Virus record (IMG/VR): IMGVR_UViG_3300010882_000009 | DNA from: a virus | Taxonomy: Duplodnaviria > Heunggongvirae > Uroviricota > Caudoviricetes | DNA length: 64,000 nt | Strand: one strand, 5' to 3' | In this document: positions 5,225 to 52,622 of the stretch, piece by piece | Layout: every line of letters begins with the position of its first letter | Position numbering within the stretch: the first letter of the stretch is position 1 | Made by a program: the position numbers and the translations under genes | Notes under the pieces: model-generated | What the model saw: only the letters and a program-made list of their open reading frames with translations | Databases searched by the model: none | Told to the model about the DNA's origin: nothing

Positions 5225-5266
5225 GCAAACTACCCACTACCATTAATGGTATCGGATTTCTCGCTT
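5225..5266 (-). repeat. structured repeat element copy C (reverse orientation)
   Basis: revcomp AAGCGAGAAATCCGATACCATTAATGGTAGTGGGTAG matches copies at 13868, 16592, 52585. Confidence 0.6.
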
Positions 5267-5289
5267 AACTTTAAAAAAGGAGTGTTAAT

Positions 5290-5706
5290 ATGGATTATAA
5301 AACAATATCAGATAATTACAAAAACTCTCATCCGCGGCTATATGTATTAGCTCATTGTGATACTAACCAGCAAAATACATTTATTCAAGATGCAAGAGAC
5401 AATGGGTATTTCGCAGAGCCAATAAGGGCAAATTGTTTTGAACTTAAATTAGATAACAGGAATATGATATTTGACTGTGATGGTAGTAAGGTTGATATAA
5501 ATGAATACGCATTTGGTAAAACACAATTTACAAAAATAACGCCAAGATTATCAATAACATCAATGTCTCCAGATGATGCAGCATATTACTATAATTGGTG
5601 TCCACTTGAGTGTATGTTAGACCATTCAAAGATTCCATTAAATAACATGCATGATGCTAGGATATACAGTAATGCTTGTATATATGATGATGCTAGTGTA
5701 TTTTAA
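5290..5706 (+). CDS. hypothetical protein (138 aa)
   Basis: RBS aaaaggagtg. Confidence 0.55.
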   Translation: MDYKTISDNYKNSHPRLYVLAHCDTNQQNTFIQDARDNGYFAEPIRANCFELKLDNRNMIFDCDGSKVDINEYAFGKTQFTKITPRLSITSMSPDDAAYYYNWCPLECMLDHSKIPLNNMHDARIYSNACIYDDASVF

Positions 5707-5729
5707 TAGAAGACAAATTCTATTAAAAT
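5705..5729 (+). promoter_or_regulatory. intergenic palindrome motif copy
   Basis: AATAGAA-gacaaa-TTCTATT-AAAAT. Confidence 0.65.
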
Positions 5730-5778
5730 TTATATACATACAATAAAAACAAAAATATTATTTAAAAGGATTGATTTT

Positions 5779-6360
5779 ATGAAAAAGTATAGTTTTACTG
5801 GTGATACTAAGATAGTAAATGGAATAACACTACAAAGAATTAAGGCGAATGTTGATTTTCATTATGTTAGTGTTGGAGACTTGGGTGGATGGATAGAAAA
5901 TGAATCGAATCTTTCAAATAATGTAAATAATAATGCTTGGGTGTCTAATGATGCCCAGGTATACGGTAATGCCCAGGTATCAGGTAATGCCCAGGTATAC
6001 GGTAATACCCAGGTATCAGGTAATGCCCAGGTATCAGGTAATGCCCAGGTATACGGTAATGCTAGGATATACGGTAATGCCCAGGTATACGGTAATGCTA
6101 GGATATATAGTGGAGAGTGGGAAGTATCACCATTATATATACAAGGAACAAAATGGGTGTTCTGTATGGTATCAAAAACTGAAATAAAAATTGGATGCCA
6201 AATTCATACAATAGATAAATGGAGAGAAAATTACAGAATAATAGCAAAGAGACACAACGCAGTTGACATTATTGAAGAATATGTAATGTATTTGAATGTT
6301 GCTATTGCAAGGTATGGACTTGGTGATGCTATTTTACTCGAAGATATTGCTGTAAATTAG
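5779..6360 (+). CDS. hexapeptide-repeat (beta-helix-like) protein, 9 x GNAQV[YS]
   Basis: period-6 aa repeat with aliphatic every 6th residue; RBS aaaaggattg. Confidence 0.6.
   Translation: MKKYSFTGDTKIVNGITLQRIKANVDFHYVSVGDLGGWIENESNLSNNVNNNAWVSNDAQVYGNAQVSGNAQVYGNTQVSGNAQVSGNAQVYGNARIYGNAQVYGNARIYSGEWEVSPLYIQGTKWVFCMVSKTEIKIGCQIHTIDKWRENYRIIAKRHNAVDIIEEYVMYLNVAIARYGLGDAILLEDIAVN
5947..6108. repeat. 9 tandem copies of 18-bp unit ggtaatgcccaggtatac (coding)
   Basis: near-identical units differing at 1-3 positions. Confidence 0.9.
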
Positions 6361-6366
6361 TATTTA

Positions 6367-6391
6367 AATAGAATACAGATTCTATTAAAAT
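6367..6391 (+). promoter_or_regulatory. intergenic palindrome motif copy
   Basis: AATAGAA-tacaga-TTCTATT-AAAAT. Confidence 0.65.
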
Positions 6392-6420
6392 ATTAGTGGT
6401 TGATTAGCTTGCTTAATTTT

Positions 6421-6440
6421 AATAGAATACTTGTTTTGTT
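6421..6440 (+). promoter_or_regulatory. degenerate motif copy
   Basis: AATAGAA-tacttg-TTTTGTT. Confidence 0.35.
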
Positions 6441-6464
6441 GATATTAGAAATGGATGATAAAAA

Positions 6465-6770
6465 GTGTATACTTATACTATAGAACATAAACATGGGCAC
6501 TACCTTATAGTAAAATTTGACGATCAAGCTGGATGGTATCTTGATATAATATATGTTGACGAACAACATCGTGGGAGCGGTATTGCAAAAGAAATGCTTG
6601 CTGAAATAGCAAATGAAGATAACTATGATAGACCAATATATCTAAAAGCATCAAATTGTTATGGGTCTGATGTTTATAGATTAGTAAAGCTATATGAGTC
6701 GTTCGGATTTAGGCAAGCTAGACAGGTAGATATTAGTACGCCATTTGATTACAATATGGTGTTAGATTAG
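6465..6770 (+). CDS. GNAT-family N-acetyltransferase (small)
   Basis: VDEQHRGSGIAKEML matches GNAT motif A (Q/R-x-x-G-x-G/A); GTG start. Confidence 0.6.
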   Translation: MYTYTIEHKHGHYLIVKFDDQAGWYLDIIYVDEQHRGSGIAKEMLAEIANEDNYDRPIYLKASNCYGSDVYRLVKLYESFGFRQARQVDISTPFDYNMVLD

Positions 6771-6781
6771 GGGTGTTTTAC

Positions 6782-7306
6782 ATGGAGTGGAAAAGCATAG
6801 CCATAATACAATCTGAAACAACAAAGTTAGATTATTACAGCGAATTCAATTTTGCTAGAGCTGTTGCACTAACAAAATTTATGAGAGAAATTGAAAGTAA
6901 GTATGCAAATGATTTTAAAATAATTACAGCTTGCCCTTTAATTCTAGTTAATAGAGACTTGTCAAAAGAAGAATGGATTGAAACATTTACTTTAGGATTA
7001 TGGGTTAAGTTTGCAATAGTGGATATGGAGTATTATTTTGAAATGGATAGAAATCCATTCTTTAGTGCATATATTGTAAAAAGCTATAGAGTAGATAGCA
7101 GTACAAAAATGTACGAGTATGCAGGTGAAATGAATGATATGCTATATAAGAATGTTAATTTTAATGCGAATGAAAAAACTATCGCACAACTTGTAAAAAA
7201 CTTTCATAAAGCATTTACTCATGTAATCAAGCGTAATTCTAGTATGTATTTAGAAGAAATACCAGCATATGCAAGAGAACTAAAGCAGACTATATACAAG
7301 CACTAG
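6782..7306 (+). CDS. hypothetical protein
   Basis: RBS taggggtg before ATG. Confidence 0.55.
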   Translation: MEWKSIAIIQSETTKLDYYSEFNFARAVALTKFMREIESKYANDFKIITACPLILVNRDLSKEEWIETFTLGLWVKFAIVDMEYYFEMDRNPFFSAYIVKSYRVDSSTKMYEYAGEMNDMLYKNVNFNANEKTIAQLVKNFHKAFTHVIKRNSSMYLEEIPAYARELKQTIYKH

Positions 7307-7310
7307 TTTT

Positions 7311-7335
7311 CATAGAATTTCTATTCTATTAAAAT
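7311..7335 (+). promoter_or_regulatory. intergenic palindrome motif copy
   Basis: cATAGAA-tttcta-TTCTATT-AAAAT. Confidence 0.6.
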
Positions 7336-7353
7336 AATCTTGGAGTGAGTGTT

Positions 7354-7932
7354 ATGAATAATAAAATGTCAGAAGGAACAATTGCTTACTATATAAACAA
7401 TATAATAGCAGAGACGGAAGCAGAAATTAATTCAAGCAAAGAATATACTGATAAAGCCAAAACAGAAACAGAAAAGTTAAATTATATTCGATATATTGTT
7501 GGGATGCAATTTGTTATTGACAAGCTTAAAGAATTAACTTTTAAAGACAGGTTTCCGTATGCTCCAATGCACGATATTTATAATGGTGATAAAAAATATT
7601 ATGAAATCTCATGGAATTATTACAATCCACGTATTGTTGAATGTGAATCATGTGACACAGAACAAGATGCTATTGATACGCTTATTGATATTATTGAAAA
7701 AGAATGCCATGAAAAAGATATACCAATTGAAGCATTTTTCATTCCATATGACAGAATAAAAGACGAATTGAACGACGATTATGATTATAACAAAGTAAAT
7801 TCAGATATGTATATACAAGGTGGCAATGCAGGATTATATCTTGATACAAATGGGTTATTGCAAATAAAAGAGGTAACGGCTGATGAAGCAAGAATTATTA
7901 ACTATAATATTAAAAATGCATATCCATTCTAG
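7354..7932 (+). CDS. hypothetical protein
   Basis: RBS ggagtgagtg before ATG. Confidence 0.55.
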   Translation: MNNKMSEGTIAYYINNIIAETEAEINSSKEYTDKAKTETEKLNYIRYIVGMQFVIDKLKELTFKDRFPYAPMHDIYNGDKKYYEISWNYYNPRIVECESCDTEQDAIDTLIDIIEKECHEKDIPIEAFFIPYDRIKDELNDDYDYNKVNSDMYIQGGNAGLYLDTNGLLQIKEVTADEARIINYNIKNAYPF

Positions 7933-7954
7933 TTTTTATAAATGAGGTGATGTT

Positions 7955-8245
7955 TTGATAAAACCGATGTTTGGTTCAAACAATCAAGGATACTTTTCAG
8001 TTGTTCAAATGAAAACATTTTTAGATGAACAACAGAAAAAAGGAATAGAAATTAAAAACATATGGTATAACTATGGGCTTCTTAGTATTTTAAGCGAATT
8101 TAAGATAACAGCAAAAGGATTATCTGGATATGATGCTCTCAGTAATTATTGCTACTTTAGCGATTCAAATAATATTAAATTTTGGAAAGCTAATATCATG
8201 CAATATTTTGCTGATGGGATTAATACAAATGCTGTGTCAGCATAA
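7955..8245 (+). CDS. hypothetical protein (TTG start)
   Basis: RBS atgaggtg 6 nt before TTG. Confidence 0.45.
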   Translation: MIKPMFGSNNQGYFSVVQMKTFLDEQQKKGIEIKNIWYNYGLLSILSEFKITAKGLSGYDALSNYCYFSDSNNIKFWKANIMQYFADGINTNAVSA

Positions 8246-8392
8246 TATACAACAGCGACAATATATTATAGAGTGCAATTTTTTGTTGTGCTGCATGCCG
8301 GATATTTGGTATGAATATGGCGGCATGTTGTAGAGCAAAAAACATACAGATACAGGTGTGTGGATATTGTTCTTTAGTTTTTCATAAGTATC

Positions 8393-8419
8393 GCCGGGGC
8401 TGACTGATCCAGTCCCGGC
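8393..8419. other. GC-rich hairpin (10-bp stem, 7-nt loop) in 225-bp ORF-free gap
   Basis: GCCGGGGCTG-actgatc-CAGTCCCGGC; no U-tract on either strand. Confidence 0.5.
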
Positions 8420-8469
8420 ACCTCCCTAAAATAATTCTCCAAGTAAATAATAATGAAAAGGATGAGTAA

Positions 8470-8652
8470 ATGATGAATTTGGAAAAATATTCAGATAATC
8501 AAATTATAAAAATTGTTAATGATAAATTAAAAACTGGCGAATGGAATTGTGACAAGTTCAGAGAATTTGCTGAATATTTTAATACGTATAAGACATGCAG
8601 AGATTATATTCAAGCACAACTACAAAATATTAACGATAGGAAAGATTTATAA
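8470..8652 (+). CDS. hypothetical protein (60 aa)
   Basis: RBS aaaaggatgag. Confidence 0.5.
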   Translation: MMNLEKYSDNQIIKIVNDKLKTGEWNCDKFREFAEYFNTYKTCRDYIQAQLQNINDRKDL

Positions 8653-8682
8653 ACAAAGTTACTGGTAATGTCGTTAAATTTG

Positions 8683-8707
8683 TATAGAACGATTATTTGA
8701 TTAAAAT
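8683..8707 (+). promoter_or_regulatory. motif copy (variant right half)
   Basis: tATAGAA-cgatta-TTTGATT-AAAAT. Confidence 0.55.
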
Positions 8708-8727
8708 ATAATAATAGGGGTGATTAA

Positions 8728-8838
8728 TTGAGATGCATTATTTCTACTTTGCTTGTTTTGGCTTTCTTTTTTGCTGTGTTGTTTAATATTAAAATAGATT
8801 TATCTTGTATACTTGGAACTTTTAATAAATATAATTAA
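8728..8838 (+). CDS. possible 36-aa hydrophobic peptide (TTG start)
   Basis: RBS aataggggtga 5 nt before TTG; below track size cut-off. Confidence 0.25.
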   Translation: MRCIISTLLVLAFFFAVLFNIKIDLSCILGTFNKYN

Positions 8839-8859
8839 ATATAGAAAAGGTGATTGAAA

Positions 8860-9288
8860 ATGATAGATAAATTAAATTTTTTTAGTCTTGATATTGGTGA
8901 AGTAAAAAATATTCTTAAAGAATATATGAATAAAACAAATACTCATAAAGAATTTATTAGTTTTATTCCAGAAATAGCAAGTGATTATCAAGCAAAAATT
9001 GAGCATGAACTATTAAGAACTAAAATGTGTGCGAACGCACTTCTTGTTTGCAATGATATTGAAAAGTGTGTTACAAAAGATAATTGGTTTATATGGGCAA
9101 GATTTTTAGATGTAACAGAAAATGGGATATTTAATAGTATAAATATGTTGCAACCAAATGTTATACTTAATAAGATTATTGAAATAGTTTCAGATAATAA
9201 TATTATAGACAATATTGATATTTGTGGAGAACGTTACAATTTATTGCAACTTATTTGTAAATTAAAACATAAATATTTAAATGATTAA
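8860..9288 (+). CDS. hypothetical protein
   Basis: RBS aaaaggtga 8 nt before ATG. Confidence 0.55.
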   Translation: MIDKLNFFSLDIGEVKNILKEYMNKTNTHKEFISFIPEIASDYQAKIEHELLRTKMCANALLVCNDIEKCVTKDNWFIWARFLDVTENGIFNSINMLQPNVILNKIIEIVSDNNIIDNIDICGERYNLLQLICKLKHKYLND

Positions 9289-9306
9289 TTGGAAAGGAGT
9301 ATTTGT

Positions 9307-9471
9307 ATGTTAGAAATATTACAATATGTATTGCCATTTATATTTTCTAGTTTCTGGAAATGGCTAGGAACAGTAATATTATGTGCTGTGATTTTTGGTG
9401 GGCTTGGATTAATGTTTAGTAGAACTACAAATATTATTAATAAAAATGTCAAAGAAGATAAATTAAAATAA
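9307..9471 (+). CDS. small membrane protein
   Basis: RBS aaaggag; two hydrophobic segments. Confidence 0.45.
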   Translation: MLEILQYVLPFIFSSFWKWLGTVILCAVIFGGLGLMFSRTTNIINKNVKEDKLK

Positions 9472-9484
9472 AGGATGTAATGAT

Positions 9485-9880
9485 ATGACAGTATTAAGAG
9501 TTTATTTTACAAGTAAAACTATTGTAGATGTACCATTCCATGTCCAGCAACTTGAAATGTGGTGTTCTGATGACAAACAAAAGTACAATTCTTATGGAAC
9601 AACTACAATTCCTGATGATGTTTATATTGAAAGTATTGAAGAAGACAAGGAGTATAATTGCATTACCATAAAAATGACAGATGAAACAAAATTATGGACG
9701 TATAAAGTTGGTTATTTTAAAACAGAATGCTATGAAGGAGTGCTACCATCTACTAGAGTAGAGTTAGTTTCTGGTGTTGATCATGTTCTTCCCGGGATGT
9801 ATACTGTTGATGAAATGGCGCGTCTTGATAATATTCTACAATGGAATCCGAAGGTATTACAAACGGTAGATATACCGTAA
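9485..9880 (+). CDS. hypothetical protein
   Basis: RBS aaaggatg. Confidence 0.55.
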   Translation: MTVLRVYFTSKTIVDVPFHVQQLEMWCSDDKQKYNSYGTTTIPDDVYIESIEEDKEYNCITIKMTDETKLWTYKVGYFKTECYEGVLPSTRVELVSGVDHVLPGMYTVDEMARLDNILQWNPKVLQTVDIP

Positions 9881-9915
9881 GATATTTGAATGGTACCATT
9901 ATTTGAAGATGATGA

Positions 9916-10158
9916 ATGGAGAAATTTATAATGCCAAAAATGAATCCTGGTGATACTAGAAAACTATTGCCTATTAAGGCTGGAGAAATATATGGTGGAG
10001 CAGATGTCACGCCATTAATGTCTAAACTAGCTTGTGAAAAAGTAACAATTAAATCAATATATGATGGGGTGTTCTATACGTTAGAGCTACATAAAATACT
10101 TAATGCTGTGGGTCTGTACAATTGTACAGATGAGATGTTTAATTGGGACGATGATTAA
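9916..10158 (+). CDS. hypothetical protein, paralogue of 51117-51344
   Basis: shared TP[LI]MS.LA.E.VTI and CTDEMFNWDDD / WTDAMFDWSD. Confidence 0.55.
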   Translation: MEKFIMPKMNPGDTRKLLPIKAGEIYGGADVTPLMSKLACEKVTIKSIYDGVFYTLELHKILNAVGLYNCTDEMFNWDDD

Positions 10159-10260
10159 TTTGTATCTTTACAATATTTTATATTATGATATACTTATAAG
10201 AAATGATAGCTTTATCATATATCAAAATTAAAAAATAAATCAAAATAGGTGGTGCTTTGC

Positions 10261-10671
10261 ATGGCAGAAATAACTAGTCTTCACATAAAATTTAGGTCTG
10301 TTGCAAAAATTAATCAGGAGAAAACACCTGATATATTTGATACAGGAATGTATATACTTTGTATGGATAAAAATGAAATGGGATTCGCATTTGAAACAAC
10401 GCAAGTAGATATATCATTTAAAGATGGATTCATGTATATAGAATGCAAGCATAAAGATATTGCTGCGCATCATACGTATGAAGATTTTATTAGCGATCCG
10501 TTTACGGCAGATGAATTATGTAAAGCTATTAAAAATTCAAAGATGTCACACTACACACAAGTGTATCATGAATGTAAAATAAATGAATCTGATCCAGACA
10601 ATGTTGATCTTGCAATAGAGAAAATGGTTTTCTATGATAATTTCAATCAAAAATATGATTTATGGGAATAG
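10261..10671 (+). CDS. hypothetical protein
   Basis: RBS aataggtgg before ATG. Confidence 0.55.
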   Translation: MAEITSLHIKFRSVAKINQEKTPDIFDTGMYILCMDKNEMGFAFETTQVDISFKDGFMYIECKHKDIAAHHTYEDFISDPFTADELCKAIKNSKMSHYTQVYHECKINESDPDNVDLAIEKMVFYDNFNQKYDLWE

Positions 10672-10681
10672 CAATAATTTT

Positions 10682-10706
10682 TATAGAATGGCAGTTCTAT
10701 TAAAAT
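10682..10706 (+). promoter_or_regulatory. motif copy
   Basis: tATAGAA-tggcag-TTCTATT-AAAAT. Confidence 0.6.
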
Positions 10707-10725
10707 CATAGAAAGGATTGAGATA

Positions 10726-13642: not shown

Positions 13643-13855
13643 ATGCTTAGAATGAATGTTTGTCTTATGATTATTGGTCTTATACTATTCATTATTACAT
13701 TATTAATAGAAATAAGTCTAAAACTAGCAAATCAAGATAGCTTGGCAAGAATGTTTACAGACAATACAAATGATGTAATATTAACATTGATTACTTTGAT
13801 AATTTGTTTTGTGCTTTGCTTTTGGGGAGCTAAAATCTATAATAATAGGAATTAA
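13643..13855 (+). CDS. small membrane protein (2 TM)
   Basis: RBS ataaggatg. Confidence 0.5.
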   Translation: MLRMNVCLMIIGLILFIITLLIEISLKLANQDSLARMFTDNTNDVILTLITLIICFVLCFWGAKIYNNRN

Positions 13856-13867
13856 TTTATAAAATTA

Positions 13868-13914
13868 TAGCGAGAAACCAGCTACCATTTAGGGTCGGAG
13901 GGTTCACATAAATC
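13868..13914 (+). repeat. structured repeat element copy A
   Basis: TAGCGAGAAACCAGCTACCATTTAGGGTCGGAGGGTTCACATAAATCA. Confidence 0.6.
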
Positions 13915-16571: not shown

Positions 16572-16591
16572 CGAATATACTAATTTAAATA

Positions 16592-16637
16592 GCCCGGCGA
16601 GAAATCATATTCCATTTATGGGTAGTTCACATAAATA
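16592..16637 (+). repeat. structured repeat element copy B
   Basis: GCCCGGCGAGAAATCATATTCCATTTATGGGTAGTTCACATAAATA. Confidence 0.6.
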
Positions 16638-16659: not shown

Positions 16660-16977
16660 ATGAGGAAAATAGATGCAGAATATTTTAAGAGCGACATTCT
16701 TAATTCAAATTGCTTAAATGATAACCTTGAAACTAAAGTAAAAGAATGGTTTGGGAAAGGTGCAAAGTATCATGTTTTAAAAGAATGTGATAATTATACA
16801 TATATTCAATTCATTTGTTGGCACGGTTCTGATATATCACTAGCAAGACTGCTTAAAATAGGCTATGGCATGGGTATTAGCGTTGATTATACTTTATCGC
16901 TTGATGATTGTGATGGACGAATTGACTTTGATGACATATGTTTATTTATTGGTAAAATAAGCGAGTTTTTATTTTGA
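16660..16977 (+). CDS. hypothetical protein
   Basis: RBS aggaggggtg. Confidence 0.55.
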   Translation: MRKIDAEYFKSDILNSNCLNDNLETKVKEWFGKGAKYHVLKECDNYTYIQFICWHGSDISLARLLKIGYGMGISVDYTLSLDDCDGRIDFDDICLFIGKISEFLF

Positions 16978-17000: not shown

Positions 17001-17020
17001 TATTTTAGGTGGTGATATGT

Positions 17021-17224
17021 ATGAATTACAGAACAATTGGCGATGAGTGCAATGAGTTTGGAGTCGCTTGTATAGATCATAAGATTCCAGAACATCATCA
17101 AAACAAAATAATTAATAAAATGGAAGAATTAATTAATGTTGCGAATAGCGAATTTTTAAAATGGCTTGATGAAAATGGATATGAAAAATATATGTGGTTA
17201 ATAGTCAACAAGCCCATCAGCTAA
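17021..17224 (+). CDS. hypothetical protein
   Basis: RBS taggtggtga before ATG. Confidence 0.5.
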   Translation: MNYRTIGDECNEFGVACIDHKIPEHHQNKIINKMEELINVANSEFLKWLDENGYEKYMWLIVNKPIS

Positions 17225-17237
17225 AGCTAATGGGCTT
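17210..17237 (+). other. perfect 8-bp-stem hairpin spanning stop codon
   Basis: AAGCCCAT-cagctaaagcta-ATGGGCTT, followed by ccgcgccgg (no U-run). Confidence 0.4.
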
Positions 17238-17295
17238 CCGCGCCGGACTATGTGAATAAGTCTAAATAGAATTAGATTATAAGGAGTGATATTAT

Positions 17296-18236: not shown

Positions 18237-18261
18237 AATAGAACTGTAGTTCTATTAAGAT
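18237..18261 (+). promoter_or_regulatory. motif copy
   Basis: AATAGAA-ctgtag-TTCTATT-AAGAT. Confidence 0.6.
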
Positions 18262-22836: not shown

Positions 22837-24093
22837 ATGAAAAATAATACATATAGAATTACCAATAATGATATAAAAGGAATGGAAGTACTCGAAATTA
22901 GCTATAAAATATTCAATAATGATTGGACTACTCAATATGGGAACTATTGCTATGTAGATGAAAATGGTAATGTAGAAGGCTCTATTCATAAAGTTGATGG
23001 CGATATTAATGCTTGTAACTGGGGCCTACATTCAAGTAAAAACCCATTAGATTGCTTAAAATTCTATCCAATGGTTCAGTGGAATAAATATGCAATTGTA
23101 AAATCTTATGGCAAAGCAAAAGAACATTCAGATGGAGATAAAATAGTTTCGCAAATATTGAAAATTGATAAAGTTTTATCATGGAGCGAATTCCTTAACG
23201 AAATAAAAAATTATAATAATGGTAATACCGATATGCATGGCTCTGGCATTAGTGATGGCTCTGGCATTAGTGATGGCTATGGCATTAGGAATGGCTATGG
23301 CATTAGGAATGGCTATGGTATTAGGAATGGCTCTGGCATTAGGAATGGCTATGGTATTAGTGATGGCTATGGCATTAGGAATGGCTATGGTATTAGTGAT
23401 GGCTATGGCATTAGGAATGGCTATGGTATTAGTTATGGCTATGGCATTAGTGATGGCTATGGCATTAGGAATGGCTCTGGCATTAGTGATGGCTCTGGCA
23501 TTATGAATAGCTCTGGCATTAGGAATGGCTATGGCATTAGTGATGGCTATGGCATTAGTGATGGCTATGGTATTAGTTATGGCTATGGCATTAGTGATGG
23601 CTATGGCATTAGTTATGGCTATGGCATTAGTGATGGCTATGGCATTAGGAATGGCTCTGGCATTAGTGATGGCTATGGCATTAGGAATGGCTCTGGCATT
23701 AGTGATGGCTATGGCATTAATTATGGCTATGGCATAAACAATTCAAAATACTGTTATAAATGCGAAGGTATATCAAGATGTATAATGTGTTATGATTTTA
23801 CGGGGAAGTTATCTGTGTTTAATAAGCCTATAACAGAAACACGGTTTAATGAAATAAATAATACAATAGAAGAATTATCGGATGGCTGGTATCCTAAGTT
23901 TAATAATGCTTTTGATTTATATAGTCAAAACAATAGCAAATGGGAATCAACACCAGTAACGATGATAAAAGAAAAATCAATAAAAGAAGCATATACAGAT
24001 ATGCCGAAAGAATTAATTGAGTATATCAAGTCTATTAATGAATATGATGAAAATATATTTAATATAATTATTGGATTAAAGGATGGGGAATAA
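22837..24093 (+). CDS. tandem hexapeptide-repeat protein, 28 x G[YS]GI[SR][DN]
   Basis: period-6 aa, aliphatic every 6th residue; N-terminus resembles that of 5779-6360; RBS taaggaga. Confidence 0.6.
   Translation: MKNNTYRITNNDIKGMEVLEISYKIFNNDWTTQYGNYCYVDENGNVEGSIHKVDGDINACNWGLHSSKNPLDCLKFYPMVQWNKYAIVKSYGKAKEHSDGDKIVSQILKIDKVLSWSEFLNEIKNYNNGNTDMHGSGISDGSGISDGYGIRNGYGIRNGYGIRNGSGIRNGYGISDGYGIRNGYGISDGYGIRNGYGISYGYGISDGYGIRNGSGISDGSGIMNSSGIRNGYGISDGYGISDGYGISYGYGISDGYGISYGYGISDGYGIRNGSGISDGYGIRNGSGISDGYGINYGYGINNSKYCYKCEGISRCIMCYDFTGKLSVFNKPITETRFNEINNTIEELSDGWYPKFNNAFDLYSQNNSKWESTPVTMIKEKSIKEAYTDMPKELIEYIKSINEYDENIFNIIIGLKDGE
23239..23742. repeat. 28 tandem 18-bp units ggctatggcattagtgat (coding)
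   Basis: units differ only at 3 codon positions (tat/tct, agt/agg, gat/aat). Confidence 0.9.
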
Positions 24094-25604: not shown

Positions 25605-25859
25605 ATGACTGAAACAGAATATGCTAAAGAAACAAGTCGTGAAAAAATTATTGAACGCATGAAAGGTATAAATAAAGAATTGCTCGAAATTTTAGTAGAC
25701 ATTGCATTTGAAAATATTGATGGAAAACAGTTTGACTATGTAAATAGTTATCAACTAGCAGACGCTACAACAAGCATACATAATATTATATTAAATATTA
25801 ATCATATTGTATTTCAATGCGAAGATGATGACAACGAATATGATAGTAAGTTTGAATAG
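25605..25859 (+). CDS. hypothetical protein
   Basis: RBS taggaggc. Confidence 0.55.
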   Translation: MTETEYAKETSREKIIERMKGINKELLEILVDIAFENIDGKQFDYVNSYQLADATTSIHNIILNINHIVFQCEDDDNEYDSKFE

Positions 25860-25879
25860 AAAGTATATTCTATTAAAAT
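25855..25879 (+). promoter_or_regulatory. motif copy
   Basis: AATAGAA-agtata-TTCTATT-AAAAT; overlaps upstream stop. Confidence 0.65.
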
Positions 25880-29012: not shown

Positions 29013-29037
29013 AATAGAAACTCTGTTCTATTAAAAT
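29013..29037 (+). promoter_or_regulatory. motif copy
   Basis: AATAGAA-actctg-TTCTATT-AAAAT. Confidence 0.65.
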
Positions 29038-31102: not shown

Positions 31103-31168
31103 TATAGTTATAATGAATGCTCGAAAAGCTAACTCATTTAGGTGTGGGAGTGGGAGTGGTGAAAAGAT

Positions 31169-31501
31169 ATGCAAGTCAATAAGAACTTATTATTATGCAT
31201 AACATCAATTTTAGGAATGGTTGTAACATTATTTTCATTTGTTTTATTTAGAAATATTATTAATAGCGTTGTTATTGCAATAAAGACTGATGTTAACTTC
31301 TCATATTTTCAAGGTAATGTTGGAATGTTGGTAGTAGAACTTAGTAATAATATTAATATTATCAAGGCTTCAAATTTAATATTACATTTTATAATATTAT
31401 TACTAATTACAACTTGTGCATTGAATAATTGGAATTTGTATTTAAAAAACAAAAATATTAAAAGAGTAACTGGAGGATTTGAAAATGATAAAAATAATTA
31501 A
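31169..31501 (+). CDS. small membrane protein (NfeD-like partner position)
   Basis: 2-3 hydrophobic helices; overlaps downstream SPFH gene by 17 nt. Confidence 0.5.
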   Translation: MQVNKNLLLCITSILGMVVTLFSFVLFRNIINSVVIAIKTDVNFSYFQGNVGMLVVELSNNINIIKASNLILHFIILLLITTCALNNWNLYLKNKNIKRVTGGFENDKNN

Positions 31502-40224: not shown

Positions 40225-40249
40225 AATAGAATTGAATTTCTATTCAAAT
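40225..40249 (+). promoter_or_regulatory. motif copy
   Basis: AATAGAA-ttgaat-TTCTATT-CAAAT. Confidence 0.6.
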
Positions 40250-47142: not shown

Positions 47143-47161
47143 ATTTTGAGGAGGAATTATA

Positions 47162-47479
47162 ATGGCAATAGAAGCCAATAACCAAATTATGAAATTTAAA
47201 GTAACAAATGATAAACTAAAAATGGAAATCACACTAAAGGATTTAGTATGGTTATTTCATAATAGCCCTAATAATATTGAAGATGACAAACTATTTGCAA
47301 AAGTAATTCCTGGGAAAAGAAAAGAGTTTGCTGAATGGGTTGTAAGTATGATGAATAGCGGCTCTCCTGATAACGAAGAGAATCCTGTATGGGGACAGCT
47401 ATTAGAAGAGATATTTAATATTATTTTCGAGGGGTATGACCCTTGCGATGAGTTTATTAATATTGCAGATGATTATTAG
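47162..47479 (+). CDS. hypothetical protein
   Basis: RBS tgaggagga. Confidence 0.55.
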   Translation: MAIEANNQIMKFKVTNDKLKMEITLKDLVWLFHNSPNNIEDDKLFAKVIPGKRKEFAEWVVSMMNSGSPDNEENPVWGQLLEEIFNIIFEGYDPCDEFINIADDY

Positions 47480-47589
47480 AATTAATTATAATTTGAAATA
47501 AAAGCTGCGTATGGTAGTTCACTAGAATATTATTTCTATTCATATATTTTTAGTGATAAAATATAATCAAATTTGCGAAAATATATTCT

Positions 47590-47889
47590 GTGAAGGATTT
47601 GATAGCATTGCGAGATACACTTATTGGTAAATTGGCAATAGTAAGAAAAGATTTAATTGAACATGAATTTTATGGTGGAATTAATGCTCAAGGTGCCCAT
47701 GTTCATTATGGTGGGCGTAGTGGAGAAATTATTGATCGTTGTCGGAATGATTATTCCAATGTAATGATGTACAGGATACGCCATATAGATATGTGGTTCA
47801 CAGAAGCAATGTTTGAACAAGTCTTATGCTCTTGCCGTGTTCAAAAAGAAAAAGAGATAAATATATGGGATACAGAAAATCGCGTTTAG
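47590..47889 (+). CDS. hypothetical protein (GTG start, no clear RBS)
   Basis: track ORF only. Confidence 0.4.
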   Translation: MKDLIALRDTLIGKLAIVRKDLIEHEFYGGINAQGAHVHYGGRSGEIIDRCRNDYSNVMMYRIRHIDMWFTEAMFEQVLCSCRVQKEKEINIWDTENRV

Positions 47890-47899
47890 CAGTTATAAA

Positions 47900-47970
47900 A
47901 CAGTGTATAATTATACATTTTTGATGTATAATTAATGTATAAAGTATTGAATAATGTATAAATATACATA
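47900..47970. promoter_or_regulatory. cluster of TGTATAA half-sites including two perfect palindromes (operator/iteron-like)
   Basis: TGTATAATTATACA at 47904-47917 and ATGTATAAATATACAT at 47954-47969 plus extra half-sites. Confidence 0.4.
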
Positions 47971-47978
47971 AAAATTTG

Positions 47979-48003
47979 AATAGAAGACGCATTCTATTCA
48001 AAT
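47979..48003 (+). promoter_or_regulatory. motif copy
   Basis: AATAGAA-gacgca-TTCTATT-CAAAT. Confidence 0.6.
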
Positions 48004-48041
48004 TAAAAAATAAAAATATTATAATAAAAGGGGTTATTTAT

Positions 48042-48998
48042 ATGTATTTGTTTAAAAGTGGAATTATTTTAAAGGATAGAGTTTTTATACCAGACTACGA
48101 CAATTATGCAGATATGTTTAAAGAATTAAATATAGATGGCAATCCCGAAAATACTAAGCCTATTTTTGTACGTGTAGAACTTATTCCACAAGACAATAAT
48201 GTCTTTTCTGATATTGCTACATGGAGATTTAATGTTAACCAAGATATAGTGCCTGACTGGTTTGTTAAAGATTATGAAAAAGAACGCATGATCACTGCAG
48301 TAAAAGAATGGGCTAAATCCCGTATTTATATTGGTGTTGACGGATTAGAATTGTCAACAGGAGCTAATTATTATTTAAAAGATTGTAACGATATTATATT
48401 GACAGGCAATGTAAATATTGCAATGTTGAAAAGCTCAACTGTGCGTCTGATGTGTGATAGCACAATTGTAGAAAAGATGTGTGATAGCTCAACTGTAGGA
48501 GTGATGTGGGATAGCTCAAATATAAGAGAGATGTGTGATAGCTCAACTGTAAGAGAGATGTGGGATAGCTCAAATATAAGAGAGATGAATGATAGCTCAA
48601 TTGTAGAAAAGATGTGGGATAGCTCAACTGTAGGAGTGATGAGGCAAAGATCAATTGTAGAAAAGATGTTGCAAGGATCAACTGTTAGAGATATGAGAGA
48701 TAGCTCAACTGTGCGTCTGATGTGTGATAACTCAACCGTAGAAACGATGTGGGAAAGCTCAATTGTAGGAGTGATGAGTGGAAGTTCAAATATAAGAGAG
48801 ATGTGGGGTAGCTCGACTGTAAGAGAGATGAGAGATAGCTCAATTGTGTCAATACAAAATAATTTGTTCTCAAAAGGTATAAAACAAGATAGTATTATAC
48901 TGTGTGATAATGCTGTAATAAAAGACAGTCGTACAAAAACAATCTATCATAGCGGAGATTGGAAACTAGTTTTAATTGAGAATTCTGAAATTAGGTGA
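48042..48998 (+). CDS. tandem 9-aa-repeat protein (16 x DSSTVREMW-like)
   Basis: RBS aaaaggggtt; period-9 aa repeats. Confidence 0.6.
   Translation: MYLFKSGIILKDRVFIPDYDNYADMFKELNIDGNPENTKPIFVRVELIPQDNNVFSDIATWRFNVNQDIVPDWFVKDYEKERMITAVKEWAKSRIYIGVDGLELSTGANYYLKDCNDIILTGNVNIAMLKSSTVRLMCDSTIVEKMCDSSTVGVMWDSSNIREMCDSSTVREMWDSSNIREMNDSSIVEKMWDSSTVGVMRQRSIVEKMLQGSTVRDMRDSSTVRLMCDNSTVETMWESSIVGVMSGSSNIREMWGSSTVREMRDSSIVSIQNNLFSKGIKQDSIILCDNAVIKDSRTKTIYHSGDWKLVLIENSEIR
48425..48860. repeat. about 16 tandem 27-bp units (coding)
   Basis: unit tgtgatagctcaactgtaagagagatg with point variants. Confidence 0.85.
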
Positions 48999-49002
48999 AT
49001 AT

Positions 49003-49563
49003 ATGTTTAAAACTATTGTACAACCAGGAATATTAACTAATATGCTGTTAGAAAGACTTGAAAAAGATGGAGAAACAAATGATAATGGGGATAGATGTGC
49101 AGGGGACTATTGTTTATTCTTAGAAGACAAAAATGGGAATAAAGCTTCACTACATATAACTGAAGAAAAATGGGATTTAGAACCAAGTGAATATTATTAT
49201 TCTATTCATCTTATCAACAACATAACATTTACAGATTGCAAGTTTTTATATTCTAATAATTTATCAAAAGATGACCTATTAAAAATTGTTGCTGAAATAA
49301 TCGAAAGCGAAACTATTGCTTCTAAAGAAGCGATAGAAATAGAAGAAAGAAGCATACAAGAAAAAGAAAAAGAAAAAGAATCAATAATTAATATATCATT
49401 TGATGAGTTGATTGTAAATAATGTGACAGAATATATATTTAGGCTTATAGATGATGGATGGACAGTTATAGATATTTATAACAATCTAAGCGATACATTC
49501 ACATATGAATTCATTATGCAGTGGAATGAAGATTGTGGAGACGGGATTTTTGATTTATTATAA
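49003..49563 (+). CDS. hypothetical protein
   Basis: RBS aggtga formed by upstream stop. Confidence 0.5.
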   Translation: MFKTIVQPGILTNMLLERLEKDGETNDNGDRCAGDYCLFLEDKNGNKASLHITEEKWDLEPSEYYYSIHLINNITFTDCKFLYSNNLSKDDLLKIVAEIIESETIASKEAIEIEERSIQEKEKEKESIINISFDELIVNNVTEYIFRLIDDGWTVIDIYNNLSDTFTYEFIMQWNEDCGDGIFDLL

Positions 49564-49579
49564 ATGGAAGGTATATAAT

Positions 49580-49858
49580 ATGAAAAGATATATATATTAT
49601 TTTCTTTATTTTAAAATCTCTTCAAAGTTCATTTTGTTGTCTAAACGATGTGAGAAATGTCATAATAAAGTGAAACTGAAAACAATGTGGAATGTAATTA
49701 ATAACATAAATAGCTGGAAGGGGTTGCAGAATGTTTGTGATAATATTATTTGCCACTACTTCTGCAGTAAATGCTTTAGTATTGATGATATAGGAAGGAA
49801 TGAATTAGAAGATTATCTTAAAATTAATGGCGTAGGATATACTAAACGTGCGTTGTAG
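49580..49858 (+). CDS. hypothetical Cys-rich protein
   Basis: RBS atggaaggta; CEKCH..C..C..C. Confidence 0.45.
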   Translation: MKRYIYYFLYFKISSKFILLSKRCEKCHNKVKLKTMWNVINNINSWKGLQNVCDNIICHYFCSKCFSIDDIGRNELEDYLKINGVGYTKRAL

Positions 49859-49919
49859 ATAATATTAAAAACGGAGCAAGCATTAATACATTTATAAATA
49901 AGGTTTAGATAAGGAGTAT

Positions 49920-50186
49920 ATGAAGATGTTTTTATATTTATTGTTAGGATTTATTACGGCTATGTTATTTATATCTTTTGCAAAAGATTCAAATGGGGTA
50001 AAGATTTTTAATAAAGACGACGACTATGTTAATAACGCTATTATTATAGTAGCATTAACAATAATTTTTCCATTAGTTTGGCTTTTGTATATTTGTTATA
50101 TATTTAGTGAATTAGTATTATTATGCTCTCATAAAATAAAAATATATGTTGATATTATAAAAAAGAAATACGATAGATATAATTAA
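49920..50186 (+). CDS. membrane protein (2 TM)
   Basis: RBS taaggagta. Confidence 0.5.
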   Translation: MKMFLYLLLGFITAMLFISFAKDSNGVKIFNKDDDYVNNAIIIVALTIIFPLVWLLYICYIFSELVLLCSHKIKIYVDIIKKKYDRYN

Positions 50187-50223
50187 TAAGTAGAATCATA
50201 AATTATATTATAAGGATGATTAG

Positions 50224-50457
50224 ATGTTAAAAATAATATCAAAAGATTATGATAAAGAGATTAGATGTAATGTCTGGCATTCACTAGAAGAATTTTTTGA
50301 TGATAATAGCAGTGAGTATCCAACAGTTAGTTTTGACGATGAAGTTATAGCAGTTATTCTTTTTGGTGCAACAATTTATTCATCATTCACTAAATATAAT
50401 GATAATAAAGATGATAAAGTATTTATTAAAGATATATATGAGTGGTTAAATAATTAA
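50224..50457 (+). CDS. hypothetical protein
   Basis: RBS taaggatga. Confidence 0.5.
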   Translation: MLKIISKDYDKEIRCNVWHSLEEFFDDNSSEYPTVSFDDEVIAVILFGATIYSSFTKYNDNKDDKVFIKDIYEWLNN

Positions 50458-50465
50458 AATATTTT

Positions 50466-50490
50466 AATAGAATATTTCTTCTATTAAAAT
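50466..50490 (+). promoter_or_regulatory. motif copy
   Basis: AATAGAA-tatttc-TTCTATT-AAAAT. Confidence 0.65.
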
Positions 50491-50555
50491 TTGTATTAAA
50501 ATTTTATTTGCAAAGAAATGAATTTTCACAAATTTTAGTTTAAGGATTGGTCATT

Positions 50556-51080
50556 ATGAATAATGAAATTATAGATAATATTATTAATATCTCTATTCTA
50601 GCTGGGACTCTTATTAATAAGAATATTATTAGTGATGATGATTTTAAAAGCAAAGATGGATTAGAAGGTACAATTATTAAAATTGCAAATGAAATGGAAG
50701 AAAGAAGCAAATATGATAATTGTTTTGATATTAATAAATTCGCATACGACAAATTATTAATCGCTTCAGGTAGAAAAAAAACGTTTAATATTAAAAGATT
50801 TTTAGAATTTCATAATATTTTAAATTGTATCCTCATTATAAATTGTAAAACAGAAGAAGAAGCTATAGATTTATTTAGAATATTTAGTGATAATAATATT
50901 AAATGGCATTCGTCATCTATTATTGACAAACAAAATACATACTGGCAATCACACAAAGAAAATACATGCTATTGTATAGAGAATGGTTGCATTTCATATG
51001 GGGCTTTAGTATATTTTAAACATTGTGAATACTATCATTATAGTAAAATATTAAGCTACTCAGATATTTTATTTGTATAA
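50556..51080 (+). CDS. hypothetical protein
   Basis: RBS aaggattgg. Confidence 0.5.
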   Translation: MNNEIIDNIINISILAGTLINKNIISDDDFKSKDGLEGTIIKIANEMEERSKYDNCFDINKFAYDKLLIASGRKKTFNIKRFLEFHNILNCILIINCKTEEEAIDLFRIFSDNNIKWHSSSIIDKQNTYWQSHKENTCYCIENGCISYGALVYFKHCEYYHYSKILSYSDILFV

Positions 51081-51116
51081 TTATTATTTGTAATAAATTT
51101 TTGGAGGGATATAATT

Positions 51117-51344
51117 ATGAAAATGGAATCTGAAGATTCGCGAAGATTATTATCAAATTTAAAAGCATTTGATACATATGATGGTATAATGGTTACTCCA
51201 ATAATGTCAGTATTGGCAGGAGAAATTGTTACAATTAATACTGTTGGAGATAAGACATATTCAATATGCAATCATGAAAAATCAAAATATTGTGTAATGT
51301 ATGATTGGACAGATGCTATGTTTGATTGGAGTGATAGTGAATGA
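51117..51344 (+). CDS. hypothetical protein, paralogue of 9916-10158
   Basis: RBS ttggaggga. Confidence 0.5.
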   Translation: MKMESEDSRRLLSNLKAFDTYDGIMVTPIMSVLAGEIVTINTVGDKTYSICNHEKSKYCVMYDWTDAMFDWSDSE

Positions 51345-51592
51345 GCAAAGAAAGATTTATAAAAGAATGCGGAATATTATTTAACTGTGCTGAAAGTTAT
51401 TTTCAAAAATTTGAATTAATAAAAGGTTCTGATCTTAGTAGCGACAGATATATAGATAACGATGATTATGTATTAGTATATTGTAAAGATGGATTACAAT
51501 ATGCAATTCATATAAATCCAAATTCAATCACTAGAATAGATATTATTAATGATATAGCGAATGGAATTAAATCAATAAGAATACAAAGATAG
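51341..51592 (+). CDS. hypothetical protein
   Basis: ATGA overlap with upstream gene. Confidence 0.5.
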   Translation: MSKERFIKECGILFNCAESYFQKFELIKGSDLSSDRYIDNDDYVLVYCKDGLQYAIHINPNSITRIDIINDIANGIKSIRIQR

Positions 51593-51768
51593 AACGAATA
51601 GGCATAGTAAAAATACATTTATATATCAATTATATCGGAAAACAGTACATGATTTTTAGTTTTTATTATTTATTAAAAACATAGGCAGAATGCACTTTTA
51701 TAATGGTGTGCAAAAATTAAATATGGCGCATACTTTTCGCATGAATAATTTCATAAAGGGGGGAGTAA

Positions 51769-52110
51769 ATGAAACTTAAAGATCTAAAAAATGGTATGAG
51801 AATAGTAGTTAGAAATAAAAGTATATTCGTTGTGTTTGAAAATATAAATACACGAATGAATGGGTTTGTAGAAAAATTTTTTGTAAAGTTTAGTGAACAC
51901 GAAGACGAAGAACTTAAAATTATACTATCGCGTTTATATGATATAAATATAGGATGCGGATTTATGGGTTCAAATAAGTATAATGAAGATATGCTTTGCC
52001 CAACAGATAAAGCATTTGATATTATGAAAGTCTTATACCCAAGAGGTGATATTTTCTTTTTATCACGAAAACTAGAAAATATGGATTTAATATGGGAGAG
52101 GAATAAATAG
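51769..52110 (+). CDS. hypothetical protein, paralogue of N-domain of 43989-44675
   Basis: RBS aaagggggga; shared M.L.DLK.GMR...RN......EN. Confidence 0.55.
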   Translation: MKLKDLKNGMRIVVRNKSIFVVFENINTRMNGFVEKFFVKFSEHEDEELKIILSRLYDINIGCGFMGSNKYNEDMLCPTDKAFDIMKVLYPRGDIFFLSRKLENMDLIWERNK

Positions 52111-52161
52111 GTGTATTATGTGGGTGTACATGAGATATTCAAGTGATAGGGGGTAAGTGAA

Positions 52162-52533
52162 ATGCCAAAGCGCATAGCAAATTTTGACACAACTGATGTA
52201 GATATTGTTAGTGAACCTATTCCAAAGAAAAAAAGAAGTTGGAAAAGCAGGATAGAAGAATCAGAAGATTTTGAAAATAAAATGAAGGAAGCAGCAACAT
52301 TAAAAGCAAGAGTAAATAAAACAAAAGATAGATGTAGTTTGTTTAAAACTGGATCTAGAGTAATAATAAATTTATATCCAGATACAGTAAGCGCATGGGT
52401 TGCTGATGATGTAGCTAAAACACTAGAAGGAACAGTAGTGCAAAAACTATATCATTTTATGTCTATAAAAACAGATAAATATACAACAAGCGTAAGTTAT
52501 ATAGATATAGATGATGTAAATTTAGTTGCTTAA
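52162..52533 (+). CDS. hypothetical protein
   Basis: RBS atagggggtaa. Confidence 0.55.
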   Translation: MPKRIANFDTTDVDIVSEPIPKKKRSWKSRIEESEDFENKMKEAATLKARVNKTKDRCSLFKTGSRVIINLYPDTVSAWVADDVAKTLEGTVVQKLYHFMSIKTDKYTTSVSYIDIDDVNLVA

Positions 52534-52541
52534 ACAATCAT

Positions 52542-52570
52542 TTGACAATAAACAATAGATATGGTATAAT
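52542..52570 (+). promoter_or_regulatory. consensus sigma70-type promoter TTGACA-17-TATAAT
   Basis: perfect -35 and -10 hexamers with 17-nt spacer. Confidence 0.5.
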
Positions 52571-52584
52571 AAATATTCTGTCAA

Positions 52585-52622
52585 TGCCCCACGCCCCTAA
52601 AGGGTAGCGGGTTTCTCGCTTG
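52585..52622 (-). repeat. structured repeat element copy D (reverse orientation), just downstream of the promoter
   Basis: revcomp CAAGCGAGAAACCCGCTACCCTTTAGGGGCGTGGGGCA. Confidence 0.55.

Follow-up and report, generated by a model that had tools for sequence, protein, structure and literature searches.

The stretch of DNA analysed here (the window: 64,000 nucleotides (nt) of the IMG/VR virus record IMGVR_UViG_3300010882_000009, Caudoviricetes) is a metagenomic sequence that is found unchanged across several samples. It holds about 140 short open reading frames (ORFs) on the + strand, where all ORFs of notable size lie, and has matches to 35 PHROG families. The recognisable genes encode an FtsK-like ATPase, two GmrSD_N/DUF262 proteins, an MrpR-like protein with a recombinase fold and an IS607-type unit, and the window looks like part of a large temperate phage or a similar mobile element of a low-GC bacterium. 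Between these genes lie four short GC-rich repeats, each able to be drawn as one hairpin, which very probably derive from the ends of transposons of the IS200/IS605 family and are the subject of this analysis.

An earlier reading of the same DNA, made from its letters without database searches (hereafter the sequence-only reading), had described a four-copy, GC-rich structured repeat that lies between genes in both orientations. The repeat itself is borne out. The shared pattern GCGAGAAAYCNNNTWCCMTTWAKGG, 25 positions long, matches the window at exactly four sites, compared with none in 100 dinucleotide-preserving shuffles even when three mismatches were allowed, and exact 9-mers and 12-mers are common to the copies. 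All four are intergenic, between + strand ORFs, and their G+C content is 38-58% against a window background of 23-33%. The tail that had been noticed in two copies, those it placed at 13868 and 16592 (the 13861 and 16589 copies of Table 1), is GTTCACATAAAT and exactly identical in both. In an alignment including the flanks, the window copies are ~68% identical and no two are the same. As had been stated, the repeats are not tRNA-like, and no tRNA or tmRNA gene was found in the window.

The copies tend to lie close to the signals of neighbouring genes: those at 5225 and 16589, together with a well-formed copy found outside the window (L103 19433), are 0-25 nt upstream of a ribosome-binding site (RBS) or start codon. 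The consensus sigma-70 promoter that the sequence-only reading had placed directly before its copy at 52585 (our 52580 copy) is indeed there, and it reads into the reverse complement of that copy, which makes up the first ~50 nt of the + strand transcript. The partial relative reported at 47505 also exists, as TGGTAGTTCAC, a few bases off the reported position; it belongs to an internally deleted fragment whose tail is identical to known right-end tails. With a further copy at 17204 and a doubtful one at 31116, the copy number is 4-7 in about 84 kb.

Table 1. Repeat copies and other features of the window. In the text, copies are named by their first position; a slash marks a putative cleavage position. 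RBS, ribosome-binding site; UTR, untranslated region; aa, amino acids; HTH, helix-turn-helix.
Feature	Position	Strand	Make-up, 5' to 3'	Pattern match; motif-strand sequence	Setting
Probable single-hairpin IS605-end derivative	5225-5272	-	T-run (5273-5278), then AAAGTTAA-GCGAGAAA-TCCGA TACCA TTAA TGGTA GTGGG-TAGTTTGC	5240-5264; 5264 to 5225, GCGAGAAATCCGATACCATTAATGGTAGTGGGTAGTTTGC	24 nt upstream of ORF at 5290
Probable single-hairpin derivative	13861-13907	+	TTTAT (13856-13860), 17-nt linker ending GCGAGAAA, imperfect hairpin, GTTCAC/	13870-13894; from 13870, GCGAGAAACCAGCTACCATTTAGGGTCGGAGGGTTCACATAAAT	Stop of small membrane ORF on one side, TTGATT-17-TATAAT promoter on the other
Probable shortened single-hairpin derivative, outer stem lost	16589-16630	+	TTTAA, then ...GCGAGAAA-TCATATTCCATTTATGGG-TAGTTCAC/	16597-16621; from 16597, GCGAGAAATCATATTCCATTTATGGGTAGTTCACATAAAT	22 nt upstream of RBS of ORF at 16660
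Probable single-hairpin derivative, best preserved	52580-52628	-	TTTAT (52629-52633), AAGGAACAA-GCGAGAAA-CCCGC TA CCC TTTA GGG GC GTGGGG-CATTGAC/	52595-52619; 52619 to 52580, GCGAGAAACCCGCTACCCTTTAGGGGCGTGGGGCATTGAC	
Perfect sigma-70-type promoter (context, not part of the element)	52542-52570	+	TTGACA-17-TATAAT with extended TG		Ends 8 nt before the 52580 copy
Internally deleted fragment	47498-47522	+	ATAAAAGCTGCGTATGGTAGTTCAC, includes TGGTAGTTCAC at 47512-47522		Interrupts one AT-rich palindrome copy: TTTGAA, insert, TAGAATATTATTTCTATT
Extra copy, right-end-type flanks	17204-17244	-	GGCGCGGAAG-CCCATTAGC TTT AGCTGATGGG-CTTGTTGAC		Overlaps last ~20 nt of ORF 17009-17224
Doubtful degenerate candidate copy	31116-31158	+			In 5' UTR of ORF at 31169
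Well-formed copy outside the window	L103 19433-19477	+			Directly upstream of RBS, ~9.2 kb past window end
IS607-type unit	749-2849	+			Non-coding to about 3000
MerR-HTH/serine-recombinase TnpA of the IS607-type unit	749-1414	+			Overlapped by the ORF below
TnpB-like ORF, 491 aa	1374-2849	+			
AT-rich palindrome, example sites	5705-5724, 18237-18256, 25855-25874, 29013-29032, 40225-40244, 56507-56526		(A/G)TTT(A/G)AATAGAA-N6-TTCTATTAAAAT		
MrpR-like protein gene	59054-60109				
In-frame tandem coding repeat	23129-23843		18-nt units, GYGI(S/R)(D/N)-type		In 418-aa ORF
In-frame tandem coding repeat	48369-48901		27-nt units		In 340-aa ORF
In-frame tandem coding repeat	5913-6114		18-nt units		In YdcK-like beta-solenoid ORF
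Small, strongly hydrophobic ORF, 70 aa (34 aa from internal ATG)	13643-13855	+			Stops 5 nt before the 13861 element

We then considered how the repeats fold, using a set of 36 distinct ends and copies. Each is a two-part imperfect hairpin, and the small internal palindrome seen in the sequence-only reading is its inner stem. Folding is stronger on the motif strand than on the complement, at -17.8 versus -9.5 kcal/mol for the 5225 copy (z about -3.9 to -4.0) and -15.1 versus -10.8 kcal/mol for the 52580 copy; the L103 copy reaches z=-6.3. The stems hold G-U pairs and bulges, which are mismatches on the opposite strand, and such strand-specific pairing is consistent with recognition of the top strand as single-stranded DNA. 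The sequence-only reading had also proposed a covariation check on collected homologues, and this gave a clear result over 24 transposon ends retrieved by protein similarity alone (described below): 84% of cells were paired compared with 65% after shuffling (0/500), both sides change in 8/9 pairs, and compensatory cells numbered 41 where 14 were expected (0/500), while registers slid along the alignment were only 30-53% paired.

Elements of the IS200/IS605 family encode a 'peel-and-paste' transposase of Y1 type, TnpA, and some also encode TnpB, an RNA-guided nuclease. When the strict pattern was scanned across public genomes, metagenomes and viral contigs, few matches were obtained, and two of these stood next to tnpB. 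In a Bacteroidetes (L004) and a Micrarchaeota (L005) metagenome-assembled genome, the motif shares its strand with a tnpB ORF that begins 50-70 nt further downstream, and L004 has a second, related hairpin at the tnpB 3' end, GAAGCCGCTATCCCTTTAGGGTAGCGGAGTTTCAC, with a tail like the GTTCAC tail of the window copies. A 52-kb viral contig (L003, 7008-7265, - strand) has the motif and, ~210 nt on, a second hairpin, CTACCCTTTAGGGGCGTGGGTGCGTCAA, that hardly differs from the 3' half of the 52580 copy. Another locus, L010 (347-1598, + strand), is a 99%-identical variant of L003 that diverges inside the second hairpin after CTACC and then runs into tnpB. Because L010 shares the first hairpin and internal sequence before continuing into tnpB, L003 is a ~250-nt gene-less miniature of a TnpB element, and the two form a natural before-and-after pair for internal deletion of an IS605-type element. 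One match (L006) was a lone copy like those of the window. We left out three others, which probably match by chance: a long, perfect hairpin lying between convergent genes (L007), a site inside a miaA-like ORF (L008) and a GC-rich one (L108).

TnpB proteins from the pattern loci retrieved first 9 and then 80 further loci in viral contigs, where at least 456 TnpB relatives were confirmed among the 600 candidate stretches listed. A model of 12 ends from TnpB-linked loci, none of them from the window (R1; partly retrieved by the pattern), gave 29 matches over the 80 viral loci. All 29 were on the tnpB strand and lay either 80-540 nt upstream of tnpB, at the left end (LE), or at the tnpB 3' end, at the right end (RE). 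An opposite-strand ORF of ~133 amino acids between the left end and tnpB is a Y1 transposase (PF01797, E=3.4e-29 and 5.6e-34), and the tnpB ORFs match OrfB_IS605, HTH_OrfB_IS605 and Cas12f1-like_TNB. This layout (LE, leftward tnpA, rightward tnpB, RE), together with the Pfam matches, indicates that these loci are classical IS605-type elements; the intact relatives (L020-L022, L056, L059, L072, L075, L081 and L086) are 1.3-1.9 kb long. When R1 was run against the window with filters off, the four copies took ranks 1-4, with E-values of 2.4e-6 (52580), 2.6e-4 (13861), 0.012 (5225) and 0.056 (16589), followed by the 17204 copy at 0.35; the 31116 candidate reached only 0.49. Since some R1 sequences had come through a pattern derived from the window, which makes the comparison partly circular, we built two further models, R2 with structure and R3 with sequence only, from the 24 ends retrieved purely by protein. 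These recovered the 52580 copy (R2 E=0.001, R3 E=5.6e-4) and the 17204 copy (R2 E=0.0033, R3 E=0.011), and they did not recover the 31116 candidate.

The anatomy of the ends can be read from these loci. Left ends consist of TTTAT, ~17 nt ending (A/G)GCGAGAAA or GCCGTAAAA, a GC-rich imperfect hairpin with a TTTA loop, and ATGAAAGCG or ATGTAAGGC. Of 18 left ends, 14 have TTTAT 17 nt before the hairpin foot, and the 13861 and 52580 copies have it at exactly this distance too, with the variants TTTTT at 5225 and TTTAA at 16589. Right ends consist of ...CGAAG or CAGAAT, the hairpin, and a tail (T)AGTTCAC/ or GAGCGTCAA/, whose boundary 7-8 nt 3' of the foot was set where related elements diverge: L004 and L011 right after GTTTCAC, and L020, L021 and L022 after GCGTCAA. 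The window copies end in GTTCAC (twice), CATTGAC and AGTTTGC. The tail of the 16589 copy, GGGTAGTTCAC, is identical to the right ends of L056, L063, L072, L081 and L086, and the 17204 copy closely resembles those of L072, L081 and L086. In IS608, 19 nt separate the left hairpin from the cleavage site on its 5' side and 10 nt separate the right hairpin from the one on its 3' side; the bases that pair with the cleavage site are a guide tetranucleotide preceding the hairpin foot (PMC3597680). The geometry of our ends matches IS608 closely, with TTTAT as a putative target-like site and the boundaries as putative cleavage positions.

Two regularities of the intact ends are recorded here in their own right. 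In the right ends of L020-L022, L004, L011, L018, L056, L063, L072, L081 and L086, a GAAT flank goes with a ...TCAA/ tail and GAAG with ...TCAC/, flank and tail types whose co-occurrence suggests guide/cleavage-site pairing. In left ends, a purine-rich internal loop (GAGAAA or AUGAAA) is closed by a short helix (GCC...GGC, GGC...GCC or GC...GC). Both look like the guide/cleavage-site and extended left-end rules of this clade. For the GAGAAA...GAUGAAAGCG arrangement we also tried the hammerhead, K-turn and C/D-box folds; the strands do not fit their cores, and the motif is the transposon left end.

The window copies differ from genuine ends in how their flanks are combined. We scored 5' flanks and 3' tails by LE-versus-RE log-odds, leaving one out, on 15 left and 15 right ends. 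All 15 left ends were LE-like at the 5' flank and 14 at the 3' tail; for the right ends, RE-likeness was found in 15/15 and 14/15, respectively. The copies at 13861, 16589 and 52580, like the lone copy L006, have an LE-like 5' flank (+6.7 to +11.4) and an RE-like 3' tail (-10.7 to -20.6); the values are +9.2 and -15.7 for 13861, +11.4 and -12.8 for 16589, and +6.7 and -10.7 for 52580. The left-end flank AGCGAGAAA and a right-end tail around one hairpin were seen together in none of the 30 genuine ends. In L006, the 5' arm is that of the left end of the L020-22 family, and the 3' arm and tail are those of the same family's right end. Its hairpin pairs poorly (z=-0.7, compared with -3 to -5 in genuine ends), which, like the poor pairing of the 13861 copy, is expected at a junction of two different arms. 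The L103 copy has an RE-like 3' tail with an ambiguous 5' flank, and the 17204 copy, judged by eye, looks RE-like on both sides.

Taking the chimeric flanks together with homology to IS605 ends, we favour, with somewhat better than even confidence, the explanation that the window copies are immobile products of a collapse between left and right ends. We infer collapse because an LE-type flank and an RE-type tail enclose one hairpin that is often poorly paired. A full or miniature element would have inserted with directly repeated, partly identical LE and RE hairpins, which TnpA would bind in single-stranded DNA while the bases 5' of the foot pair with the cleavage or target site, as in IS608. 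Recombination or replication slippage between the two hairpins would then leave a 'solo hairpin' of ~42-49 nt with an LE 5' flank and an RE 3' tail, analogous to a solo long terminal repeat. LE and RE hairpins share cores such as CCCTTTAGGGTAG, and such a collapse predicts chimeric junctions within the shared CCCTTTAGGG core. The 16589 copy has additionally lost its outer stem, and the unit at 47498-47522 is internally deleted. The TnpA of IS200/IS605 elements is a dimer that holds two hairpins, LE and RE (PMC3597680). The units of the window are therefore most likely immobile relics, since each has a single hairpin where the dimer binds those of both ends, no tnpA was found in about 84 kb, and the copies have diverged. 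At present they probably do no more than add a stem-loop to intergenic transcripts, with a possible regulatory side-effect where the stem-loop lies near a promoter or RBS.

Several observations weigh against this explanation. The 13861 and 16589 copies fold no better than shuffled sequences (z=-0.4 for 13861), their hairpins being degraded, and R2 alone is not significant for 5225 (E=0.25), 13861 (E=2) or 16589 (E=5.8), nor is R3; these three copies are tied to the family through the motif shared within the window, R1 and the flank analysis. The 5225 copy is LE-like at its 5' flank (+6.0), but its 3' tail is ambiguous (+6.4) and not clearly RE-like. A genuine right end, L106, has a GAGAAA-type 5' flank, so plain solo right ends could account for some of the chimera signal. 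Neither a Y1 tnpA (PF01797) nor an IS605-type tnpB occurs among the 138 ORFs of the window, and no called gene in two 10-kb extensions has a Pfam match to either on record; the sole tnpB-like gene in the window is of IS607 type and accompanies a serine recombinase. No empty site or presence-absence polymorphism was seen in contigs of four samples, which were 100% identical or had the same gene spacing at 52580. Finally, 5-7 independent events of insertion followed by collapse in about 85 kb is a lot, and this leaves room for a mobile element.

Such an element would be an active miniature transposon, like a repetitive extragenic palindromic (REP) sequence or a minimal palindrome-associated transposable element (PATE), in which one hairpin lies between a left cleavage site (TTTAT/) and a right one (...TTCAC/) and which is moved in trans by a Y1 TnpA encoded elsewhere in the phage or its host. 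The chimeric architecture does recur, four to six times here and also in the unrelated viral contigs L006 and L107, and TTTAT, the 17-nt linker, the AGCGAGAAA flank and the right-end tail have been kept although the stems diverged. The hairpins at 5225 (z=-4.0) and L103 19433 (z=-6.3) are excellent, and most tnpB elements are non-autonomous and moved in trans (PMC10055086). We nevertheless consider mobility of the units unlikely: known IS200/IS605 transposition uses a TnpA dimer with LE and RE hairpins (PMC3597680), the copies include no identical pair, one is truncated and another internally deleted, the chimeric hairpins of 13861 and L006 pair poorly, no tnpA lies nearby, and the contigs compared show no insertion polymorphism. 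The units also lack a second hairpin in direct orientation to bound them. The distance between nearest same-strand copies is 2.7 kb for one pair and 47 kb for the other, and in each pair an LE-type 5' flank is found on both copies. A more specific proposal, to which we give slightly less weight still, is that TTTAT/, the linker with AGCGAGAAA, one hairpin and GTTCAC/ make up the smallest functional IS200/IS605 substrate, a REP-like element of ~47 nt whose hairpin would serve as both ends and which Y1 TnpA would carry in trans from one phage genome to another, perhaps with the T-rich arm of the phage promoter/operator palindrome described below as its target. The suggestion of a small mobile or miniature element in the sequence-only reading thus holds for the origin of the repeats, which are homologous to the subterminal hairpin ends of IS200/IS605 elements, and does not hold for a complete element, given one hairpin, diverged copies and no evidence of current mobility.

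That reading had also offered a regulatory RNA structure and a protein-binding site. Whatever their origin, the repeats could have been taken over by the phage as cis-acting RNA signals, namely read-through attenuators or terminators in the two antisense copies, where the hairpin is followed by UUUCUCGCUU, or a stabilising 5' stem-loop at 52580. All copies lie in short intergenic spacers near promoters or ribosome-binding sites, the 52580 copy begins ~8 nt past a perfect promoter and is overlapped by a terminator-like match (52606-52620), and the intergenic regions holding copies are without the otherwise near-universal AT-rich palindrome. However, the mixed orientation of the copies among uniformly + strand genes leaves no single RNA form in common, the two + oriented copies have no U-run, and the conserved parts are exactly those kept in transposon ends. 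At gathering thresholds, Rfam 15 gave no match in the window or in 7 related loci. The mixed orientation and the lack of an Rfam match leave a regulatory RNA unsupported, and we think it improbable. A double-stranded operator for a phage DNA-binding protein would likewise be short, repeated, intergenic and partly dyad-symmetric, as the copies are; it is very unlikely, because the pairing is strand-asymmetric, with G-U pairs and bulges that mismatch on the other strand. The conserved flanks are asymmetric as well (GCGAGAAA versus GTTCAC), the stem sequence varies with compensation so that structure and not sequence is kept, and the obvious operator-like repeat of the window is a different, AT-rich perfect palindrome. 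That the copies are chance GC-rich islands, unrelated on proper alignment, can be all but dismissed: two of them (13861 and 16589) do fold like shuffles and are weak under R2 and R3, but the 25-position pattern has four matches where none is expected with three mismatches allowed, the copies share exact 9-mers and 12-mers, and the external matches fall on transposon ends.

The derivation from IS200/IS605 ends can be placed among known systems. Like IS608, ISDra2 and IS605-type tnpA-tnpB elements, the repeats have a GC-rich imperfect hairpin on one strand in subterminal position, with conserved bases 5' of its foot, a T-rich, target-like motif (TTTAT) that precedes the left hairpin by ~17 nt, an end reached 7-8 nt past the right hairpin and sequence similarity to both ends. 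Unlike these elements, each unit has one hairpin, no tnpA or tnpB, a length of 42-49 nt instead of 1.3-1.9 kb, and an LE 5' flank joined to an RE 3' tail. Gene-less IS605 derivatives, PATEs, have already been described (PMC10055086). Our repeats resemble PATEs and other IS605-derived miniature inverted-repeat transposable elements, of which L003 is an example, in being gene-less, intergenic and of the same transposon family; PATEs, however, keep separate LE and RE hairpins and remain TnpA substrates, whereas in the window units one chimeric hairpin, often mismatched, is left. Both the ends of IS200/IS605 elements and their gene-less, PATE-like derivatives are well known. No description of the collapsed single-hairpin LE/RE chimera was met in the literature searched, although no search was aimed at it.

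REP systems occur in tens to hundreds of copies per genome. With REP sequences and their RAYT (TnpA-REP) transposases, going by PMC8266576 and general knowledge, the repeats share a GC-rich imperfect hairpin of ~35-45 nt, a conserved 5' flank, intergenic position, both orientations and a link to Y1/HUH enzymes. They differ in that a conserved GTAG or GGAG 5' tetranucleotide (the flank is GCGAGAAA) and a RAYT gene are both missing and the copies are few. The window holds no Y1-family gene at all, and the sequence homology of the repeats is to IS605 ends and not to REPs. The omegaRNA of TnpB is reported to overlap the tnpB 3' end (PMC10055086), which is where the related right-end hairpin with ...GTTCAC sits in intact elements. 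The upstream omegaRNA scaffold, located within tnpB, is missing from the window copies, and with no IS605-type TnpB there either they are very unlikely to act as guide RNAs. Rho-independent terminators are also GC-rich stem-loops in AT-rich intergenic DNA, unlike which the + oriented copies have no U-tract and the repeats show conserved asymmetric flanks and homology to transposon ends. The relationship between TnpB and Cas12 is known, and a weak likeness of the L004 right-end hairpin (5135-5164, - strand) to CRISPR-DR35 is in line with it; this Rfam match, seen in E-value mode, is non-significant (18.7 bits, E=1.9).

As for the surroundings, relatives were few. Two proteins encoded beside the repeats have none in viral contigs, and a search of 5.8 billion proteins with a third found just that protein itself. 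Against cultured phages, BLAST of two copies yielded a single match, due to chance, and a 7-kb stretch of the window matched nothing. The TnpB-like ORF of the IS607-type unit has a weak match to Cas12f1-like_TNB and PF27229 SSO2105_N on record, and the ends of that unit show no GC-rich hairpin motif.

The more striking feature of the window, compared with the GC-rich repeats, is the AT-rich perfect palindrome that precedes most genes. It has 45 sites within two mismatches, where 2.5 are expected. Outside ORF bodies there are 41 of them, and their median distance to the start of the next + strand ORF downstream is 30 nt. With the left arm TTGAAT it reads TTGAAT-16-TAAAAT, which is promoter-like. 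A sigma-70 promoter scan of the whole window gave 175 matches against 161 expected and is uninformative because the DNA is AT-rich. The MrpR of SPbeta binds a repeated 15-bp element, SPBRE, at about 10 promoters (PMC10516654), and, by analogy with it, the palindrome may belong to a much denser promoter/operator system of the same kind, in which the MrpR-like protein of the window would be the counterpart. In a deletion scan with a position weight matrix, the four main copies of the GC-rich repeat do not split the palindrome, and only the fragment at 47498-47522 does so convincingly. Deleting this fragment in silico restores the AT-rich motif with a score of 27.1 bits. This is suggestive, but against a noisy null the score reaches only about the 95th percentile.

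Two further observations concern coding sequence. Three ORFs contain in-frame tandem repeats, and two public assemblies break inside the first array (23129-23843). SPbeta-like phages are known to carry type I toxin-antitoxin loci, and the small hydrophobic ORF before the 13861 element resembles the small membrane toxins that such loci encode.

Our analysis removes a candidate 'new structured RNA' and explains the repeats by descent from a transposon family that is very common. In uncultured phage genomes, IS605-type tnpA-tnpB elements and their debris are frequent. The LE/RE chimeric 'solo hairpin' will keep being flagged as novel by annotation pipelines and RNA-motif screens unless it is modelled. 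If the units were mobile after all, they would link IS605 elements with REP-like single-hairpin repeats. From the TTTAT motif and from the way flanks go with tails (GAAT with ...TCAA/, GAAG with ...TCAC/), the target-adjacent motif (TAM) and end rules can be predicted for this TnpB clade, which could help in mining it for genome editing.

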